DNA of 64,000 bases from Dictyostelium discoideum (taxonomy: Eukaryota). The notes beneath the pieces are model-generated. The model ran no database searches. It had not been told where the DNA came from and saw only the letters and a program-made list of their open reading frames with translations. This document shows, piece after piece, positions 8,704-32,907 of the stretch; position 1 is the first letter of the stretch, and each line of letters begins with the position of its first letter. Both the position numbers and the translations under genes were made by a program. The stretch covers positions 7,456,001-7,520,000 of the forward strand of contig CM000151.3 in the NCBI GenBank assembly GCA_000004695.1, written 5' to 3'.

Positions 8704-9730
8704 ACTATTTTAGACGATAAAGATGGCCAAAATATAATTGATTTTGGGTTGGTTCCTAATTTAGCAGATGATTTATTTTATGATGGAAAATTATGTGTTG
8801 CTGATTCACCTAAAATCGTTTTCTTTACTTGTTTTAAATTAGGAGGAAATGATATTACTAAAACCTTCGATGAGGGCCAATCAGCTGTAATGCTAAAGTT
8901 TGATGTAGACCAAATTAATTATAAGGATTTTAATTTATATGGATTGGATGAGCAAGATATTAATGGTACAAGACATAAAAAAATTTTTATGGTTCATGTG
9001 GATCATAAAGAGGGTTTGAATTTTGCTAAAGTTAATAATTTTAAACCTCTTGATATTGAAAAAAACAATTATCTAAGATATGATCCAGAAGAAAAAAAAT
9101 GGTTTTCGTGGAGATACACAAAAGGAGGGTTAATTGTAGATATTGCATTTTGTAGCTATAAATTACCAATTCCAAGAAACAAATTATTTCCAATCAAAAA
9201 TATGGGCGGAAAACCAAGTAATATGAAATTTTTTTATTTACCAATATCAAAGCCATCCCCAATTACAGAAATAAATTATAATATAGCAGATAGTCAAAAT
9301 AAAGTTATAAATACATATGAATTTAAAATTGAATCTCTTGCTATTGGGTAAATATATTATAATATTTTGTATAGAGATTTATAGATTTAGTAAGTTACTA
9401 ATAAATATTTTTTATAACATTAGTACATGTTGTAGTTTACAAAAAAAAAGTTCATTAAATGGTTCTTCTCAAACAAACAATTCATCACCATTCCAAAAGA
9501 ATTTACTAAATACAATCATGAGATGTTCAAACGATAAAATTAAAATATTTAGTATGAGTATTAATGGAAATGATTTTCAAACTATAAAAAGTCTTTCCGA
9601 TGATGGGAAAATAACTATCATTGATGCAAACACAATTTCAATTTTAACAAATCTTGATGAACTTGTTACAATTTCAATTATTCATACTAAAAAGAGTCCT
9701 TTATCACCACTAGCTGATAGAAACTCTTAA
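8543..9730 (+). CDS. Hypothetical protein, 3 exons: 8543..8597, 8714..9347, 9424..9730
   Basis: Exon 1 MRVPNEYLEKIDYFHHYT ends with 1 nt before GTAAGT at 8598. The intron contains a 50-nt poly-T and ends TAG at 8711-8713; exon 2 supplies 2 nt (codon TAC). Exon 2 ends GG before GTAAAT at 8348. A 76-nt intron ends TAG at 9421-9423 and exon 3 supplies T (codon GGT). All phases are consistent, and the ORF-track ORFs 8623..9351 and 9317..9730 are joined. No recognisable family. Confidence 0.55.
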
Positions 9731-20039: not shown

Positions 20040-20600
20040 AACCAATTGGTTTTAAAAATTATTAAGATTGAATCTCAAAAAATTTATTTTTGTATTCTTC
20101 TTTCAAATTAAAAAAATGGTTTAATAAATGAAAAGAATTAAAAAAAAGAATTGTTTTTTTCATTATACAAATTAAAAAATAAAATAAAATTAAAATTAAA
20201 ATAATTTTTTGGTTTTTTAAAATCAATGAGGTTGTGAGCTTCACTTATTATTAGAACTTTTTTGTAATTTAAATTTAATTCAAAAAAATAAATAAAAAAA
20301 AAATTTAAATTACAAAATATTTCACCAAACCCCCAAAAAAAATAAAAAAAATTATGATAATTTTAATTTTAATTTTTTCACACCTCAAAATTTTATTAAG
20401 GCATTGTTATTGGAAAATGAAACATTACCAATAAAATCCTTTTTTGATCTGGGAGTTTAATTTGTAATTTGGTAATTTTCATTTTTTTTTTTTTTTTTTT
20501 TTTTTTTTGTGTGGTTAATAATGGGGAAATAAGTTTTGAGGTGTGAAAAAATTAAAAACAATCAAGAAGGTAAAAAACAAAAAAAAACAAAATCAAAATA
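20040..20600. repeat. Non-coding repeat block, copy A (3' of the esterase gene, 5' of the 19438 gene)
   Basis: Shares ordered motif islands with 22830..23420: aataattttttggttt, aatcaatgRggttgtRagcttca, aaacccccaaaaaa, ccttttttgatYtgggagtttaatttgtaatttggtaatt + poly-T + gtgtggttaWtaatg...gttttgaggtgtgaaaaa...ggtaaaaaacaaaaaaa. About 75-80% identity in the alignable parts. Confidence 0.7.
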
Positions 20601-21012: not shown

Positions 21013-22717
21013 TTAAGGTCTAACTTGATTTCTATAATAAGTCAAATCTAAAGCATTACATTTTGGATCATTTGTAAAAGTATCTTTAGTTTCAATAGTT
21101 GTTTCCAAAATTAAAGTTGAGTTTTGAGTAGAAGTGACTTGTCTCCATTGTATTGGTACATCTAAACCAGTGTTTGGATTATGAGTAGTTGCAAAGTTAA
21201 CTATATAGTTATTAATATCAATAGCTAATTCCTTTTCATCATTATCCAATCTTTCACCCATTAATTCATAGCTATTAAAGAATAGTGATAATTCAGTACC
21301 ATGACATACTTTATCATCACAGGCATCCAATGAATGACCAGTTGATTTTACATGAACATAATAGTAATGATAGGTTGGGGATGAAAGCTTTTTAGCATTT
21401 GTAACGGTATGATATCTATCTGGACATCTGAATAAATAATCAGTGATTAATTCAGATAAAATTGGTCTTGAATCTTGACCTCTTGGAGCGGCTGGATATA
21501 ATGGTAAAATCTTCATAGCATTCAATGGGAAAACAATAGCAACGAGAACTCTATAGTAATCAATTCCAACAATATCTTGGAAAAATGAATAAATGAATGG
21601 GATAGCTTCATGTTTTACACTTCCAATAATGGTTGGAACATCATATGTTTTACCTTCCTTTACAGCGGTTAATGGTTGCATTGGTATGATATCTCCGTCG
21701 ATAACTGGTGACCAAATAGTAAAAGCATCTAGAATTTTATCACCAAAGGTAAGTCCAACTTTTTCTTGGGCTTCAAGAATTTCATCCATTGATTTACCAC
21801 GAAGACATGTTAAATCTTCAATATTACAACCAACATTTGTTGCGAATCTATTAGCATTACCTCTGGCGGTTGTTTTGTCTTTCAATCCAACAGTCAATGG
21901 TGATGATGATGAGATGGCAGCATTAAAATATTGTCTTGAATAAGTAGATGTTAAATGAGCTGAAACTGAAAAGGCTCCTGCAGATTCACCCCAAATTGTA
22001 ATCATTTCTTTATTACCACCAAAGGAACCAATATTATTATAAACCCATTCTAATGCTTTAATTTGGTCAAGGAAACCATAATTACCATGCATTAAATCCT
22101 TTTTAATAATTAAAAGAGATAATAACAATAAAAAAATAATATATTAATATATTTATTAAATTACACATATATTAATAATGTATATTAAAACTTACAGTTC
22201 CCATAAAACCTAAAACACCTAATCTATAATTAATATTAACAACTATTACTGATGATTGAGCAAATTTAGTAGCATCATAAAGAGGTACAGAACCACTACC
22301 AACACTAAATGCACCACCTGGAATATAAACAATTACTGGGTATTTTGAATTTGGTGTGGCATCTTTTGGAGTAAAAACGTCAAGATATAAACAATCTTCA
22401 GAAGTACCAATTGGAGAGCAAACACCTGGACCAAGATTACATTTTTGAGCACATTGTGATCTTTGGGTTAAAGTTTCTCTAACATTTTCCCATGGCTTTA
22501 AGTCAATTGGATTTTCCCATCTTAATTGGTTCACTGGTGGTTGAGCAAATGGAACACCATAGAATACACGATGAGTATCTTCAACAATACCCTTAATTGC
22601 ACCAAATTGAGTTACAACAATTGAAGCATCTGTGTTTTTAATGTATGATCTTTTTCTTGCAAAAGAAATATTAATTAATAATAACAATAATAATATAAAA
22701 ACTAATAATTTATTCAT
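21013..22717 (-). CDS. Secreted type-B carboxylesterase/lipase (cholinesterase-like), 536 aa, 2 exons: 22717..22196 and 22098..21013
   Basis: Signal peptide MNKLLVFILLLLLLINISFA. EDCLYLDVF (carboxylesterase B signature 2). GESAGAFS (catalytic Ser in the GESAG pentapeptide). Minus-strand GTAAGT at 22195-22190 and acceptor aaaaAG at 22100-22099, a 97-nt phase-0 intron. Confidence 0.9.
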
Positions 22718-23609: not shown

Positions 23610-25475
23610 TTATTGTTGTCTATTTTCTAATTTAATTTTTTGTTTTAAAATTCTTATACCAACTCTATGTCTTTTATAAATTATAGAACCAATTATAATA
23701 ATGATTGCAGCACCTACAGCTGGTGCAACAATTACCACTGGTAAAAACCATTTTGGTCTGGAATCATCATCATCACATGAAGTTTTATAATCTTGGTCTA
23801 CTAATAAAGAGAAATCAGGATCAATTAAACATGTTTTACAATGTGGTAGATTTAGCCCAATTAAAATAGAATCAGTTCTTTGTCCAACAATTGAAGTTGA
23901 CATAAAAGTTTCTCTACCATCCGAAATTACTTTATTGATAAATCTACCATAAAAAGTTTTTGAATCTTTTGAAATGGTTAAATAATTTAAAGATTGATCG
24001 TTTTTGAAATCATTTGTATTTATATCTAATTTCTTTGCGTTACAATTTTTATTACCATTTGAATTATTATTACTATTATTATAATCGCCTAGAGATGATT
24101 TAATTCTTAATTGAATTGAATTTAATGTACTATGATATGTATAATTTTGAATTGAAACTGTTAATTTAAGTGAACCGGGTGATAATGTAAAATTAACACC
24201 TGCAAATGAATAATTTTTATTTTTACCAATAACTTCTTCAATTGAATATTCAATTGTGCAACTTGCATTTGAAATAAATTGTGAAAATACAACAATTCTA
24301 TTATTATCATTATTAGTATTATTATTGTTATTAGTTTTATTCCATTTATTACTTAATAAAAATTCATTTACTGTTGAACCATTAAAATTTAATTCAACAA
24401 GTGAATAAATAGAAATTTGATAATTTGAACCATCATTTGAAATTGAAGCTTCACCTGTTGTTTCATTAATATTTGGTTTTGATGATGGTGCATCAGGGTT
24501 GGAATCTTGTGAATTACAATTGAAACCTGTAAAACCATTGATACAAGTACAAATTCCTGAATCAGTATTACATATACCATTTGATGAACTTGTACAATCA
24601 TTAGGACATGAATGTTTAATTTTAGTATATTGAAAAATTTGTTTGCCAGTGTAGGATATATCCATATCGATTATTGTTACATCTTTTATACCTTCACCTG
24701 GACCAATATCACATTGAATTGTTGAATCATTAATAACTTGAATATTCTTACATTGTAATTCACCAATTTTAATTGATAATCTTTGAGATGTAGTTGTTGT
24801 TGTTGTATTATAAATACCAAAATAACCATGTAAATAAGTTGTACCGCCATTAATTGTTGTTGAATCAACAGAGTTGATATAAATTCTAGACAATTCACAA
24901 CCTTTACCATTGGTTTGAGAATCACATTCACATTCACCAGTTACTCTATTACAAGTACCATGTGGTTGTGAACAATTCAATGGACAATCTCTACAAACTA
25001 GGCTAGTATCAATTTGGACTCCATATGTACATCTTTGAATTTCTAGTCCAGGTGCTGTTACATTTAATTTTGGGATATTTGGGTTACATGAAAAAACAAA
25101 TGATGTTTTTCTTCTATTTGGTTCTGGTGCATCAGAACAATCATTACCTGTTATTGGTTGGAAAATTTTTGATCTATACACAATTGTCATACCACTTGAT
25201 GTATAATTTACAGTTTCACCAACATCTATAGAACCAAGTTGAAAAATTCCAATACTCTGACATGCTGTTGCTCCAGTTACATTACAAATATTAAGTGTGC
25301 CATTGCAAAAATTAAAATAAGTTTCGAATGAAGTTGATGATAAATTTGTTGAAGGAAATGCTACTGTATATTTTAAATCTGGTATCCTTTTTTTTTTTTT
25401 TTTTTTTTTATTAATATAAAATAATTTTTTTATTTTTTTATGGATCAAACAGGATTAAAAAAAAAATTTTTTATT

Positions 25476-25522
<47 letters not shown>

Positions 25523-25655
25523 CTTACAATTTTAATGATGATAGATTATAAGGTTGGTTTACAATTGGATTAAAATATTGACAATCTGAACATTCAACTT
25601 TTGTTATAAAATTATTTAAAAATATAAATAAAAATACAAGTAATATAATTTTCAT
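23610..25655 (-). CDS. Type-I membrane glycoprotein: signal peptide, cysteine-rich N-terminal domain (possibly MRH-like), EGF-like modules alternating with IPT/TIG-like beta-sandwich repeats, TM and short cytoplasmic tail; 2 exons: 25655..25529 and 25386..23610
   Basis: Exon 1 MKIILLVFLFIFLNNFITKVECSDCQYFNPIVNQPYNLSSLK ends phase 2 before GTAAGA at 25527. The 142-nt poly-A/T intron ends aaaAG at 25388-25387; exon 2 supplies G (codon TTG). EGF-like C-spacing: CPLNCSQPHGTCNRVTGECECDSQTNGKGCE and CPNDCTSSSNGICNTDSGICTCINGFTGFNC. TIG-like repeats: NSVDSTTINGGTTYLHGYFG...IKIGELQCKNIQVINDSTIQC. TM: WFLPVVIVAPAVGAAIIIIIGSIIY. Confidence 0.75.
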
Positions 25656-25948
25656 TTTTTTTTTTTTTTTTTTTAAAAAATTAATATTAAAAAAAAAAAA
25701 AAAAAAAAAGATTTATAAAAAAAGAGAATTGAAAAAAACAAATAAAAAAATAAAAAAAATGATTGGTTTTTGGAATTAAAATGGGAAAAAAAAAAATAAA
25801 AAAATAAAAAAATAGAAAAAAAAAAAAACAATAAAAATATCTTTTTTATTTTTTTTTTTATTTTTTTTTTTTAAAAAAAGCTCGGAATAAATCAAAACCA
25901 CTCCCAATTTTTATTTTAAAAATATCTTCGCTCCCAAAAATAAAAAAG

Positions 25949-25983
<35 letters not shown>

Positions 25984-26047
25984 TTTTTTTTTATTTTTTT
26001 TTTTTTTTTCCGATTATTTTATGATTACTTTTTCTGACTAAATTTTT

Positions 26048-28506
26048 TTATTTTTCTTTCAAACCTTTTGCAGCCATTTTGATATTATGTTTAATAATTT
26101 TAATTTCCACTTTTTTCTTATAGTATAGTACAGATCCAATAATTATTATTAAAACAAAGGTAACGGCAGGAGCACCAATAACAACATATAAGAACCATTT
26201 TGGTCTAGCATCATCACATGATGTTTTAAAATCACTATTTACTAATAAACTGAAATCAGGATCAATAATCACTTTTTTTAAAAAATGAGGTAAATCTAAA
26301 CCAATAAAAACCACATCATTATTATTACTATTATTATAATTATTATTTATTACTGAAGTTGAAATAAATGTTGGCCTATCATCAGATAAAACTTTATTAA
26401 TGAAACGACCATAAAATGTTTTTGAATCTTTTGAAATTGAAAAATAATTATTTAAAGAATTACTATTATCCAATTTTTCCGAATTAATATTTAATTTCTT
26501 TGAATTACAATCAATATTATTATTATTTGTTTCATTTTTACCAATTTTCGATTTAATAATAAGTTGTAAATTATTTAAATTATTTAAATATTTATAATTT
26601 TCAATTACAATGGTTAATTTAATTGAACCTGATACAACAACAAAATCAACATCACAAAATGAAAACATTTTATCTTTACCAACCACTTGTTCAATAATAT
26701 ATTCAATTTTACAATTTGAATCATTATTTAAATTTTGTGAAAATGTAACAATATTATTAATATTTGTGTCATTTGCCAATGGAGAAGAAGATGATGATGA
26801 TGAAGATTAATTCCAACTATTTTCAAGAAGGAATTCTTTAACAATTGTACCATTATAATTTATTTCAACTAATGAAAAAATACTAATGAAATATTGTGAT
26901 TTTTCATTTATAATTGATGATTCACCAGTTGTAAGATTTACATTAGGAGTTGATGGTGATAAACCTTTTGAAGAACAATCGATACCAGTGAATCCTTCAT
27001 CACAAATACAAGCTCCATTTGTTGTATTACACTTACCATTTAAATAACAATTTGTTGAACAATTGAAAGATGGTTGGATATATTTAAAAATTTTCTTACC
27101 CATAGCTATTAAATCATTATCAAAAATTTCAACATCTTTAATACCACTACCTTTTCCAATAATACAATTTATAGTTGAATTATTGAACTGATTAATATCA
27201 GTACAATGCAAATCACCAATCAAAATGGTAATATTTGAAGTTAAAATACCAAAATAACCATAAATCGTTACATTTCCACCTTCGATTGAAGTTGAATCAA
27301 TTGAACTAATATACAATTTTGATATTTCACAACTATTACCTATTGTTTGTGAATCACAATTACAGAAACCAGTGCCATCTTCTTCAACAACTATGCATAA
27401 ACCATGATTTGAACAATTTAAAGAACACTCAATATATTTAAATTCAACTGTCGAAGAATTAGATTTACCAATTGAAATTATAGTATTGTGAATACCAGTA
27501 CCTGGTCCAACATAACAAGTTATGGTCGTTTCATTAATATGAGTTATATTTATGCATTGTTGATAGTCACCAATATAAACTGTAAATGGGAAATTATCAT
27601 TTGGTGAACCAAAATTACCATAAAGTGTTGTTAAACCACCACTAATATTTAAAGGAACAATTGAATTTAAACTCAAATGATAAGTCTGACAATGGTTACC
27701 ACTAGTCAATGAATTACAATTACATGTATACTCCTGATCGAATTGACATTCACCATTTGTAGAACAATTTGCTATACAACCATTGAAGAATATCTTGGCA
27801 TGAACTGGTCCTAAATCACCAATTCTTAATATAACATCCTTCGTTCCTTGATTCTTACCAGTTGTACAAATTAATTCATTCTCACTAATATAAAATATTG
27901 GGTTACAATTTAATTCTTCTATTGAAATTGAAGTTGAACTAGAATTATCGCCAAAATAACCTTTAAAAGTTACATTTCCTCCATCTGCTTTTACTTCTAA
28001 TTTATTGGTAATTTCAATTCGTGAATTGTCACATATTTCTCCATTTGTATATGAATCACAAACACATCCCTTTTGATCATTTATATCACATATACCATGT
28101 GAATTTATATCTCCACACCCTGGTGGACAAGGTACACATACTGTATTGGTTAAATAGGTAACACTATAAATACATGTGGCAATTTCCTTAATTTTATTAT
28201 CTTCAATTTGTTTTTTAAATAAAGTTGAATTATATCTAGTACCACAAACTAAATTGACTGTCAAATTTCTCTGACGATTATTTTTCACACAATCATCTTC
28301 TTTTCCAGTCAATAAAATTTTTAATCCATCAATAGTTGGTTCATAAAGAATTTTTTCACCAATTGTCTTACATCCTGATTCTTGTATAAAAGGAGCTTTG
28401 ATTTTATAAAATAGGCACAAAAATTCCGCATTTTCACAAAAATTTATATGAGATCTTAATTCTGGTTTATCATTTTGATAAATAAATGTTAAATAAGAGT
28501 TGGAGC
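26048..28506 (-). pseudogene. Tandem paralog of the 23610..25655 gene, same domain order through TM and tail, interrupted by one in-frame TAA (26807..26809); probable recent pseudogene, or an allele/truncated secreted isoform
   Basis: ORF-track ORFs 26807..28420 and 26048..26779 are in the same frame and separated only by TAA. The paralog reads AAA (Lys) at the aligned codon (...KWN-K-TNNNN vs ...SWN-*-SSSS). Exon 2 acceptor ttaatAG at 28508-28507 is phase 2 like the paralog. I could not find a convincing signal-peptide exon 1 upstream; the region carries a 55-nt poly-T. Confidence 0.5.
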
Positions 28507-28531
28507 TATTAAATTAAAATACAATTAATTA

Positions 28532-28598
<67 letters not shown>

Positions 28599-28752
28599 AT
28601 TACCCTTGTAAACTACCTAAAATATAAGTTTTGTCAAATTTACTTTGATAAATACATTTGATTTGTGCAAAATTTATATTTTAAAGGTAAAATAATAATA
28701 AAAGAATAGGTAAAATGGGTTTCAAAATTTTTAAAAAAAAAAGATTTAAGAA

Positions 28753-28795
<43 letters not shown>

Positions 28796-29196: not shown

Positions 29197-30825
29197 TTAG
29201 TGTAAGAAATTTCTATTGCCAGTAAAAACCATTGGAATACCATATTTATTTGCAGCATCAATTACTTCTTGATCACGAATACTACCACCTGGTTGAACGA
29301 TACAAGCGATATTACCTTGATGAGCTAAATCGATTGAATCGGCGAATGGGAAGAAAGCATCAGAAGCCAAAACACTTCCTTTAACTTTATCACCACCAAC
29401 TTTCATACAAATGTCAACAGATTGTGAACGATTTGGTTGACCAGCACCAATGGCAACGATAGTTTCATCCTTTGATAAAACGATAGCATTTGATTTAACA
29501 TGTTTTGAAACTCTCCAAGCGAATAAGAGATCTTTCATTTGTTGTTCAGTTGGTTTATTTTCAGTGACGACCTTCCAATTCTTTGTAGCTTCAGCAAGGT
29601 CACCTCTGATGATTGGATTTGGAGATTGAAGTAAAGCACCACCAGTGATGGTACGAATATCAGGTTGAGTGAATTGAATTTGATTGGCGGCCTCTGGTAT
29701 ACGAAGAATACGTAATTTCTCTTTTTTACTTAACAATGCTAATGCATCTTCGGTGTAATCTGGTGCGATGATAACTTCATAGAAAACACTTTTCAATGCA
29801 GTTGCAGTCTCTAATGTTAAAGTTCTATTGAAACCCAAGATACCACCATAGGCAGATTTTGGGTCACCATTGAAGGCACGTTTATAGACCTCAGCTTGTT
29901 CACTATCATTAACACCCACTGAAAGACCGCATGGATTGGTATGTTTAATGACAACACATGCACATCTATCAAACTCTCTGACTGCTTTCAATGCAGCATC
30001 ACCATCTAAAATATTATTATAAGATAAAGCTGGACCATGTAATAATTGTGCATTTGCAATACCACCTGTACCTGGACATTGATAAAGTGCTGCTTTTTGA
30101 TGTGGATTCTCACCATAACGTAAATCATTCTTCTTTTCATATAATGGTAAAAATGTTTGTGGGAATTCTACATTGACAGATGCTGAATCTGTGCCTTTAA
30201 CACCTTGAATGGTAGTTGCATTTGTTAATTCAACCTTTGAAAGATATTGTGAAACGGCTGCATCATATGAACATCCATGTTGGAATGCTTTTAATGCCAA
30301 TTTCTTTCTCTCTTCCAATGTGATTGAGCTTAAAACATTGGTGGAATCAGTTGATGATTGTATACGCTCACCAATCCATTTATAATCTGATGGATCGACA
30401 ATGATTAAAACATTTTGAAAATTCTTTGATGATGCTCTAATTAATGTGTGTCCGCCAATATCAATATTTTCAATTGCTTCCTCTAATGTTGTTGATTCTT
30501 TTGATACTGTCTCTACGAATGGATATAAATTTACAACTACGATTGAAATTGGTTTAATGTTATATTTATTTAAATCGGCTTGATGATGTGCCAACTCTGG
30601 ACGTGCTAATAAACCACCATGAATCTTTGGATGTAAAGTTTTCACTCTACCATCTAACATCTCTGGATACTCTGTAACATCTGAAACTTGTTGAACTTTT
30701 AATCCATTATCAACCAATGATTTTGCTGTACCACCTGTTGAAATTAAATTAAATCCTTTACTTGAAAGAATCTTTGAAAATTCAACAATACCACTTTTAT
30801 TATAAACACTTAATAATGCTTGCAT
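29197..30825 (-). CDS. purH: Bifunctional purine biosynthesis protein PurH/ATIC (AICAR transformylase / IMP cyclohydrolase), 542 aa, single exon
   Basis: N-terminal MGS-like domain ALLSVYNKSGIVEFSKILSSKGFNLISTGGTAKSL...RVKTLHPKIHGG is the hallmark of IMP cyclohydrolase. C-terminal AICARFT domain, full length and collinear with PurH. Confidence 0.95.
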   Translation of the reverse strand: MQALLSVYNKSGIVEFSKILSSKGFNLISTGGTAKSLVDNGLKVQQVSDVTEYPEMLDGRVKTLHPKIHGGLLARPELAHHQADLNKYNIKPISIVVVNLYPFVETVSKESTTLEEAIENIDIGGHTLIRASSKNFQNVLIIVDPSDYKWIGERIQSSTDSTNVLSSITLEERKKLALKAFQHGCSYDAAVSQYLSKVELTNATTIQGVKGTDSASVNVEFPQTFLPLYEKKNDLRYGENPHQKAALYQCPGTGGIANAQLLHGPALSYNNILDGDAALKAVREFDRCACVVIKHTNPCGLSVGVNDSEQAEVYKRAFNGDPKSAYGGILGFNRTLTLETATALKSVFYEVIIAPDYTEDALALLSKKEKLRILRIPEAANQIQFTQPDIRTITGGALLQSPNPIIRGDLAEATKNWKVVTENKPTEQQMKDLLFAWRVSKHVKSNAIVLSKDETIVAIGAGQPNRSQSVDICMKVGGDKVKGSVLASDAFFPFADSIDLAHQGNIACIVQPGGSIRDQEVIDAANKYGIPMVFTGNRNFLH

Positions 30826-32199: not shown

Positions 32200-32907
32200 C
32201 TAAATGTGTATGATAAGAAGAATTAATAAATCAAATTTGATTTGTTTATTATTATTATTATTATTTTATTATTGCCATTATTATCATTATTATTATTGAA
32301 ACCTACAATTTTTGATAATGGTGAAATTTCACAAATAAACCATCTTGGGCATTTAAATCTCCACAAATTTAAATTTCTAAATAATACAATTTCGAGTATA
32401 AAAAAAAAAATCTTTGTTTTATTCTTAAAAATAGAGAGGGATATATACCATTTTTGTCCTTTGAGAGAGATTTTTGGTTTTTTTTTTTTTTAAAATTGGA
32501 GATAGAATTATATTTTTTTTTTTTTTTTCACTTTTTTATTTTCACTTTTTTTTTTTTTCACTTTTTTTTTTTTAATCAAATTTTAATTATTATCTTTTTT
32601 CACGTCTGGGTCAAAAATAAAAATAAAAATAAAAAAATAAAAAAGGTAACTTAGAAAGATCTTTTCCTAAAAAAAAAATAATAAACAAAAAAAAAAAAAT
32701 AAAAAAAAGGAAAAAATCAAATGTAAAAATAAAAAAAAAAAAAAAAGTTTAAAAAGAAAAAGCAAATGAATCTTTTTTGGTTCCAAATAAAAAATAAAAA
32801 TAAAAAAAAAAAAAAAATATCTTTTCCCACGAAACTTGTTTTTTTTTTTTTAATTTCATTTTAAAATTTAAAATTTGATTATTATACAATATATATATTT
32901 TTAAAAA

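Follow-up and report, generated by a model that had tools for sequence, protein, structure and literature searches.

Tandem Gene Pair and Its Annotation

The analyzed window, a 64,000-nt stretch of Dictyostelium discoideum DNA, belongs to chromosome 2 of strain AX4; the products of purH, of copy 1, and of the post-stop ORF of copy 2 are each exactly identical to an AX4 protein. Copies 1 and 2, the latter lying upstream, are tandem minus-strand paralogs that share 50% overall identity, the same Pfam families, and a phase-2 intron at a homologous place, after '...NLSSLK/Q'. The tandem paralogy and the common exon 1/2 phase proposed in the original prediction were thus recovered, as was the paralogy behind its claim of collinearity; strict collinearity was not, since two of the EGF-TIG modules of copy 2 have no counterpart in copy 1.

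The spliced product of copy 1 exactly matches XP_642940 (DDB_G0276847), named 'MRH domain-containing protein' in UniProt. The AX4 annotation splits copy 2 into two genes, DDB_G0276851 and DDB_G0276849. The former (Q86L15, 570 aa) is modeled with an artificial 14-nt first exon (28644..28657), and a reconstruction joining MYLSN to copy 2 exon 2 reproduces it exactly; the latter (Q86L16, 206 aa) is annotated at 26048..26668. The searchable text of papers yielded no mention of DDB_G0276847, DDB_G0276849, or DDB_G0276851. The features of both copies are as follows.

25528..25655, minus strand: copy 1 exon 1, signal peptide MKIILLVFLFIFLNNFITKVEC...
25387..25527, minus strand: copy 1 intron, 141 nt, 94% A+T, phase and position as in copy 2
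23610..25386, minus strand: copy 1 exon 2, encoding MRH, EGF, one TIG, EGF, ComC supersandwich domain (about 23802..24476), TM segment, and tail
24336..24338, minus strand: copy 1 AAA homologous to the copy 2 stop, intact, context TGG AAT AAA
28604..28725, minus strand: copy 2 exon 1, 122 nt, signal peptide and start of the MRH domain, phase-2 donor GTAATT
28506..28603, minus strand: copy 2 intron, 98 nt, GTAATTTA...TAATAG, 97% A+T
26810..28505, minus strand: copy 2 exon 2, pre-stop part, encoding MRH, three EGF-TIG modules, EGF4, and the supersandwich start
to 28133, minus strand: copy 2 MRH domain, exon 2 part
27779..28132, minus strand: copy 2 EGF1-TIG1
27428..27778, minus strand: copy 2 EGF2-TIG2
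27065..27427, minus strand: copy 2 EGF3-TIG3
26972..27064, minus strand: copy 2 EGF4
from about 26944 to about 26243, minus strand: copy 2 ComC supersandwich domain, interrupted by the stop at 26807..26809
26807..26809, minus strand: copy 2 premature TAA, codon 607 of the full gene; Lys AAA in the orthologs and copy 1
26048..26806, minus strand: copy 2 exon 2, post-stop part, encoding a variable poly-Ser loop, the remaining supersandwich domain, TM segment, and KKK tail; frame open
about 26120..26197, minus strand: copy 2 TM helix, followed by the KKK tail
26048..26050, minus strand: copy 2 normal stop

Domain Architecture and Family Assignment

Both copies encode a signal peptide and an MRH lectin-like domain, then one (copy 1) or three (copy 2) EGF-TIG modules, a further EGF domain, the ComC supersandwich domain, and finally a TM helix with a short tail. 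The supersandwich profile PF22933 (ComC_SSD, Pfam cut-off 24) matches copy 1 with 206.2 bits (E = 6e-61) and copy 2, once Lys is substituted for the stop, with 169.1 bits (E = 1e-49). EGF_2 matches above the cut-off are located N-terminal to the supersandwich domain, and the putative TM segment, a hydrophobic WFLYVVIGAPAVTFVLIIIIGSVLYY followed by KKK, was read directly off the sequence. The TIG and MRH domains escaped Pfam scans of the whole proteins and were recovered only with isolated units and profiles. PF01833 (IPT/TIG) matches seven of eight isolated units, at best with E = 2.9e-6 and, for unit 1, with 25.6 bits vs. a cut-off of 20.9, in line with the EGF and TIG content originally predicted, and the TIG profile also matches the IPT domains of plexin-A1 and a TLP-IPT chain.

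Judged by these profile matches, both genes are members of the ComC family. ComC acts in cell-cell communication in Dictyostelium (communication mutant C). The two copies resemble ComC and ComC-like proteins in the strong supersandwich match, the EGF and IPT/TIG domains, the single TM helix, and the short tail. With 601 representatives of PF22933 at E<=1e-3, the family is a large one, and, unlike copies 1 and 2, just a handful of the best 150 of these 601 representatives have an N-terminal MRH domain; the number of EGF-TIG modules also differs (1 vs. 3). The table entry for ComC in one publication reads 'Has EGF domains' (PMC4931340). The tgr genes, with which the pair had been compared earlier, are similar to it as TIG-bearing type-I membrane proteins (TgrB1/TgrC1) with tandem arrays, frequent pseudogenes, and fast evolution, whereas the EGF, MRH, and ComC_SSD domains mark copies 1 and 2 as a different family, and the PF22933 E-values speak against tgr membership. 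Tgr-specific Pfam families produced a single weak match among the isolated units (PF24612, E = 0.024, one unit), and AX4 equals the AX2-like assembly at this locus, with no hypervariability seen within D. discoideum sensu stricto.

The suggestion that the Cys-rich N-terminal domain might be an MRH domain gained support from two sides. Its profile matches CI-MPR (E = 1.2e-12) and ERLEC1 (E = 2e-4) in the PDB, and the top 36 Foldseek matches of its AF2 model, which has moderate confidence (pLDDT 65.6), are all MRH domains. Six Cys residues are invariant, as are an Arg, a Glu, and a Tyr that fall on the R, E, and Y of the pocket motif of CI-MPR domain 3, QRM...GEVDCTY. The fourth pocket residue, a Gln after a conserved Cys, is present in the copy-1 type ('ACQ') and is replaced by Ile or Leu in the copy-2 type. 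By profile and predicted fold, this is an MRH (P-type lectin-like) domain, for which sugar binding is only putative. The MRH fold is shared with the P-type lectins CI-MPR, CD-MPR, OS-9, XTP3-B/ERLEC1, and glucosidase II beta; these, however, are sorting receptors or ER quality-control lectins, whereas in copies 1 and 2 the domain occurs in the context of a cell-surface EGF/TIG receptor.

Premature Stop Codon in Copy 2

Exon 2 of copy 2 (28505..26048, minus strand) comprises 818 codons in a single frame that is open except for an in-frame TAA at 26807..26809. This codon differs by a one-base A-to-T transversion (AAA to TAA) from copy 1 (24336..24338) and from all five orthologs described below. 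The 252 codons downstream of the TAA form an open frame without frameshifts down to 26048, including the TM segment and KKK tail. The in-frame TAA, the one-base difference from copy 1, and the intact TM segment and tail agree with the original prediction. The ComC_SSD domain corresponds to exon-2 residues 521-754 (234 residues), and the stop, at residue 566, is located 45 residues inside it. An intron spanning the TAA was considered and rejected: given an acceptable donor, every GT..AG span that would keep the frame is at least 345 nt long.

As an independent comparison we used the assembly GCA_054883475.1 (L003), which is near-identical to the window. The paper behind it presents de novo assemblies from Nanopore+Illumina data, among which AX2-214 is the sole AX4-like strain; from that paper, and not from the assembly record, we infer that L003 represents AX2-214. 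L003 reads TGG AAT TAA at the site, and its exon 2 is 100% identical to that of the window throughout. L003 counts as independent data because it departs from the window in patches elsewhere, and the shared TAA is therefore not a sequencing error. Given the strain assignment of L003, the stop would date from NC4 or earlier, so that the TAA probably predates the axenic strains.

Searches for strain variants at the stop with a 197-residue query across the site returned only DDB_G0276849, and exact look-ups of the 537-aa and 243-aa ORFs of the window gave no match in Logan or other assemblies. The word-indexed protein search was patchy, missing both copy 1 and DDB_G0276849, and absent matches in it carry little weight. 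Polishing of L003 against AX4, had it occurred, would weaken the confirmation of the TAA.

Signal-Peptide Exon and Suspect Reference Patches

The signal-peptide exon of copy 2, which the original prediction had failed to find and whose absence it took as a sign of decay, was located at 28604..28725; the gene bound assumed there (28506) falls short of the true gene start because it leaves this exon out. For exon 1, the window gives LKPILPILLLLFYL*NINF... and L003 gives MKSILTILLLLFYLLNINY.... The window has TTG as the start codon (28723..28725) and TAA as codon 15 (28681..28683), in place of ATG and TTA in L003, whose intact exon encodes MKSILTILLLLFYLLNINYAQIKC..., in agreement with the orthologs P0001, P0002, and P0019.

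The mismatches between the two assemblies are clustered, with 14 substitutions at 28617..28740 (about 125 bp) and zero in exon 2; the remaining 2.5 kb of copy 2 and about 12 kb of flanking sequence are identical. The patch sits between two homopolymers, 28537..28594 (58 nt) and 28756..28795 (40 nt), and 9 of its 14 changes are A>T. At each of the 14 sites the window is derived, and the outgroups agree with L003. Gene conversion was rejected as the source of the patch, no donor sequence being present within the window. A second patch, at 32321..32666, introduces frameshifting indels into an otherwise 100% conserved exon of a COMM-domain gene, and here the outgroups are agreed with by the window at 0 of 35 sites and by L003 at 32. 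Since this similar patch damages a conserved neighbor gene, both patches are probably errors in the 2005 AX4 reference sequence. A local error patch seems to be the reason why the signal-peptide exon looks absent from the window, and the damage to this exon hardly argues for decay.

Orthologs and Evolutionary Rates

Five orthologs of copy 2 were compared, from two tropical D. discoideum, two cf. discoideum, and one D. citrinum. All five have TGG AAT AAA at the stop site and uninterrupted exon-2 ORFs of 817-856 codons. The AAA in these orthologs and in copy 1 indicates that the ancestral gene was intact. In D. firmibasis the gene has been lost outright by deletion, which argues that copy 2 is dispensable.

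Changes on the AX4 branch amount to S16/N21, vs. S11/N24 on the sister stem; for the post-stop part the counts, S6/N6 vs. S2/N1, are too small to judge relaxation by. Post-stop dN/dS is 0.22-0.26 in pairs with AX4 vs. 0.13-0.18 in intact pairs. Neutrality of the exon along the entire AX4 branch would predict 4.6 stops, so that the presence of at most one is marginal (P = 0.059). The apparent lack of extra relaxation on the AX4 branch fits a recent loss, although the rate tests have little power to date it, because dN/dS in the distal half of copy 2 is about 1 even in intact lineages. Among intact orthologs, the MRH domain and first TIG show dN/dS of 1.1-1.5; positive selection on the MRH domain is not claimed, since the excess over 1 is not significant (bootstrap P 0.09-0.37 in intact pairs).

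Interpretation of the Copy 2 Allele

We consider it likely (probability about 0.8) that copy 2 carries one real, young nonsense allele in the NC4-derived laboratory lineage, that its ancestor was intact, and that the exon-1 damage is a reference error. Copy 2 would then be a single gene for a ComC-family type-I membrane glycoprotein composed of a signal peptide, the MRH domain, three EGF-TIG modules, EGF4, the supersandwich domain, a TM helix, and a basic tail. The AAA-to-TAA change at codon 607 would end translation inside the supersandwich domain, with loss of the membrane anchor; the resulting fragment may be misfolded or secreted, or the mRNA may be destabilized. The codon-607 stop most likely yields a null allele, with an inferred loss of function of copy 2. 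Of the recent pseudogenization, strain polymorphism, and sequencing error that had been offered as explanations, the evidence favors a recent pseudogenization or lineage-specific allele over sequencing error, L003 having the same TAA.

That the stop itself is an error and copy 2 is intact in AX4 is very improbable: the window demonstrably holds low-quality patches, but the TAA does not adjoin any homopolymer patch, and the surrounding stretch agrees in every base with an independent de novo assembly that has the same codon. An older, multiply hit pseudogene, in which the loss of the exon-1 start and the exon-1 TAA would also be true AX4 mutations, is quite unlikely. The window indeed shows both lesions; however, 14 derived changes crowd into 125 bp of a locus otherwise equal to L003, the A>T bias and the position between two long homopolymers point to an artifact, and a patch of the same type disrupts the COMM-domain gene.

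Retention of the truncated product for a function of its own, as a secreted 606-residue MRH-(EGF-TIG)3-EGF ectodomain serving as a soluble lectin or decoy, also seems unlikely, as was judged originally. The signal peptide in L003 and all modules upstream of the stop are intact, and two lab-lineage assemblies carry the allele. Nonetheless, the stop leaves the supersandwich fold incomplete, the full-length membrane form is kept by all five other genomes, and the gene is dispensable, as its outright loss in D. firmibasis indicates; the undecayed downstream codons fit a young age equally well. Production of a full-length protein via an unannotated intron or translational read-through is barely credible despite the open and conserved downstream frame. 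The candidate introns would remove conserved EGF and supersandwich sequence and have 75% A+T, vs. 94-97% in the real introns, and the orthologs encode this stretch without a break; UAA is, moreover, the least leaky stop codon.

The recent nonsense allele is comparable to young unitary pseudogenes annotated as split genes, with which it shares the single disabling substitution, intact sister orthologs, the lack of further decay, and two adjacent 'hypothetical protein' models in the reference. The case departs from this pattern only in that two extra lesions are mimicked by reference errors; in other respects, this is an ordinary, recent gene loss with nothing unusual about it.

The standard laboratory strains are probably without a fast-evolving MRH-EGF-TIG surface receptor kept by wild relatives, which may be relevant for AX2/AX4 work on adhesion, recognition, and glycan sensing, and the locus adds a further example of birth-and-death turnover in a large dictyostelid family. 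A more far-reaching but unlikely reading is that copy 2 is a surface lectin-type recognition receptor with the MRH domain and TIG1 under diversifying selection, repeatedly gained and lost like tgr or immune-receptor loci, for which the nonsense allele in the NC4 lineage and the deletion in D. firmibasis would be instances; standard laboratory strains would then be natural nulls for a sensor of self/non-self or of prey/symbiont glycans. Curation stands to gain most from the result: a single gene model, flagged as a disrupted ComC-family gene, should replace DDB_G0276851 and DDB_G0276849, and the AX4 chromosome 2 stretches 28617..28740 and 32321..32666 look wrong and corrupt gene models.

Structure of the Tandem Pair

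On sequence grounds, copy 2 in AX4 appears to be a young pseudogene or null allele of an ordinary kind, and the main value of this assignment lies in curation of the AX4 reference. The locus shows exact matches to AX4 proteins of the 8.48-Mb chromosome 2 record, namely the purH ORF (29197..30825; XP_642943/Q86L14), the spliced copy 1 product (DDB_G0276847/Q86L17), and the ORF downstream of the copy 2 stop (DDB_G0276849/Q86L16). Translation of copy 2 along the minus strand (28504..26048) yields 818 codons with a single internal stop, TAA at 26807..26809, whereas copy 1 reads TGG AAT AAA at the homologous site (24336..24338); the original prediction of tandem paralogues, the upstream one with an in-frame TAA, was real in this respect. 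The collinearity that it proposed is incomplete: intron phase and position are common to both copies, whose proteins are 50% identical overall, but copy 2 contains three EGF-TIG modules and copy 1 only one.

Structure of copy 1
25528..25655, minus strand, exon 1
25387..25527, minus strand, intron
23610..25386, minus strand, exon 2

Copy 1 is adjoined by a carboxylesterase/cholinesterase-like secreted gene (first exon 22172..22717, minus strand; PF00135 in orthologous models), which is present in two copies at the D. dimigraforme locus (L006).

Domain Architecture and Family

The ComC supersandwich domain (ComC_SSD, PF22933) was found by Pfam in both copies (E=6e-61 and 1e-49), as was EGF_2. 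Seven of the eight repeated units matched PF01833 (IPT/TIG) when isolated, and their profile matches plexin IPT domains. For the N-terminal Cys-rich domain, a nine-sequence profile matched CI-MPR (E=1.2e-12) and ERLEC1 (2e-4), and the best 36 Foldseek matches in PDB of an AF2 model (pLDDT 65.6, pTM 0.68) were all MRH domains; it is an MRH (P-type lectin) domain, as had been suspected. Its invariant Arg, Glu, and Tyr align with their counterparts (R, E, Y) in the domain-3 motif of CI-MPR, whereas the pocket Gln is present in copy-1-type and absent from copy-2-type sequences. Taken together, these matches argue for the architecture signal peptide, MRH, (EGF-TIG)n, EGF, ComC_SSD, TM helix, and short basic tail. 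By PF22933 and EGF_2, both copies are assigned to the ComC family, which corrects the earlier comparison with tgr genes. At E<=1e-3 the family has 601 representatives, and among the best matches only a few extend over the MRH end. Copy 1 (50% identical) escaped a word-indexed protein search, as did DDB_G0276849 in the first run despite 100% identity over 206 aa; negatives from this search are weak evidence.

Authenticity of the Stop Codon

Syntenic orthologues of copy 2 were compared from tropical D. discoideum (L001, L004), cf. discoideum (L002, L008), and D. citrinum (L007), whose genomes differ from the window by about 8-11% of DNA over the whole synteny block. All five read TGG AAT AAA and have uninterrupted exon-2 ORFs of 817-856 codons. 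The near-identical D. discoideum assembly L003 (GCA_054883475.1, locus tags ACTFIT) reads TGG AAT TAA, its gene models for this locus have 606 and 206 residues, and it is identical to the window over the whole of copy 2 exon 2. Over 12.6 kb the two differ only by tight clusters and homopolymer-length indels; these clustered differences mark L003 as independent data, which favors a recent nonsense allele, as proposed, over a sequencing error. Outside two substitution patches, the only substitutions are one isolated G/T at 20480 and three by a homopolymer at 25984..25995, and the two strains seem to be almost one genotype. The paper on these assemblies reports de novo Nanopore and Illumina genomes of nine wild isolates and the laboratory strain AX2-214. 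Since L003 is the sole AX4-like assembly among them, we infer it to be AX2-214. NC4 gave rise to AX2 and, separately, to AX3/AX4, so the TAA is probably older than axenic selection.

The proposed search upstream of 28506 for a signal-peptide exon of copy 2 was successful: when the sequence upstream of 28505 was aligned, exon 1 emerged at 28604..28725. In L003 this exon is intact and orthologue-like (ATG AAA TCA ATA TTA ACT..., encoding MKSILTILLLLFYLLNINYAQIKC...), whereas the window reads TTG AAA CCC ATT TTA CCT..., with TAA at codon 15. The patch comprises 14 differences in 125 bp, 9 of them A>T, between homopolymers of 58 and 40 nt; no donor sequence for it exists in the window. The second patch (32321..32666; 35 substitutions and several 1-bp indels) damages a COMM-domain gene in its 5' exons; elsewhere this gene is the same in five genomes. 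Four outgroup genomes share the L003 base at 32 of these 35 sites, and at no site do they share that of the window. We conclude that both patches are probably low-quality stretches of the AX4 reference; the exon whose apparent absence had been taken as a sign of decay in copy 2 would be hidden by such a patch. The TAA at 26807 lies outside both.

Removal of the TAA by an intron was rejected, since frame-preserving GT..AG spans with usable donors are all at least 345 nt long, exon-like in composition (A+T 0.75 vs. 0.94-0.97 in real introns), and would remove conserved sequence. UAA read-through is not expected.

Consequences and Reference Annotation

The stop falls at exon-2 residue 566, within the ComC_SSD (residues 521-754), and translation ending there would leave a partial domain and no TM helix. 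DDB_G0276851/Q86L15 (570 aa) was reproduced exactly by joining a 14-nt exon, which begins at an out-of-frame ATG (28655..28657), to the part of exon 2 that precedes the TAA, and DDB_G0276849 (206 aa) is the piece from the first post-stop ATG. Thus, the AX4 reference splits one broken gene into two protein-coding genes, one with an artificial start. No mention of DDB_G0276847, DDB_G0276849, or DDB_G0276851 was found in searchable paper text.

Right after the stop lies a poly-Ser run (26780..26806), probably a disordered loop within the supersandwich domain; in orthologues its length ranges from about 8 Ser to over 15, and D. citrinum has further insertions.

Evolutionary Rates and Age of the Lesion

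dN/dS values (Nei-Gojobori)
Copy 2 exon 2, every pair including intact vs. intact: 0.54-0.72
Copy 2 MRH domain, intact pairs: 1.1-1.5 (excess over 1 not significant by bootstrap, P 0.09-0.37)
Copy 2 EGF1-TIG1: 0.8-0.9
Copy 2 EGF3-TIG3: 0.25-0.37
Copy 2 supersandwich domain: 0.1-0.2
Copy 1: 0.18-0.29
Copy 1 MRH domain: 0.3-0.7
purH: 0.05-0.08

It is at the membrane-distal end that copy 2 evolves fastest, along a steep gradient (26972..28504; L001, L002, L004, L008); the distal tip changes at the neutral rate or faster, yet retains its Cys, Arg, Glu, and Tyr. With L002 as outgroup, changes on the AX4 branch (S16/N21; post-stop, S6/N6) and the sister stem (S11/N24; post-stop, S2/N1) give no clear sign of extra relaxation in AX4. 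Stop-creating changes constitute 5.8% of single-base changes in copy 2 exon 2, so about 4.6 stops would be expected had the whole AX4 branch been neutral (P(<=1) = 0.059). Together with the lack of frameshifts in AX4 copy 2, these observations indicate a lesion that is apparently young.

Gene Turnover

Between purH and the copy-1 orthologue, D. firmibasis has only a frameshifted 180-bp relic of the copy 2 3' end. D. dimigraforme has a tandem pair with both members copy-1-like, and the number of EGF-TIG modules varies between 1 and 4 among relatives. Such turnover is birth-and-death evolution, here within a large family of surface proteins.

Relic and fused gene models in relatives
L005 (D. firmibasis) 9390..9569, relic aligned to window 26352..26152 (76% identity, E=1e-32)
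L001 13023..17694, copy 1 fused with the downstream carboxylesterase
L002 13059..17683, copy 1 fused with the downstream carboxylesterase
L007 12054..17550, copy 2 fused with copy 1

The three fused models are annotation artefacts, and those proteomes should be used with caution. The D. firmibasis purH model (787 aa) is extended by an unrelated low-complexity stretch and is probably a mis-merged gene model.
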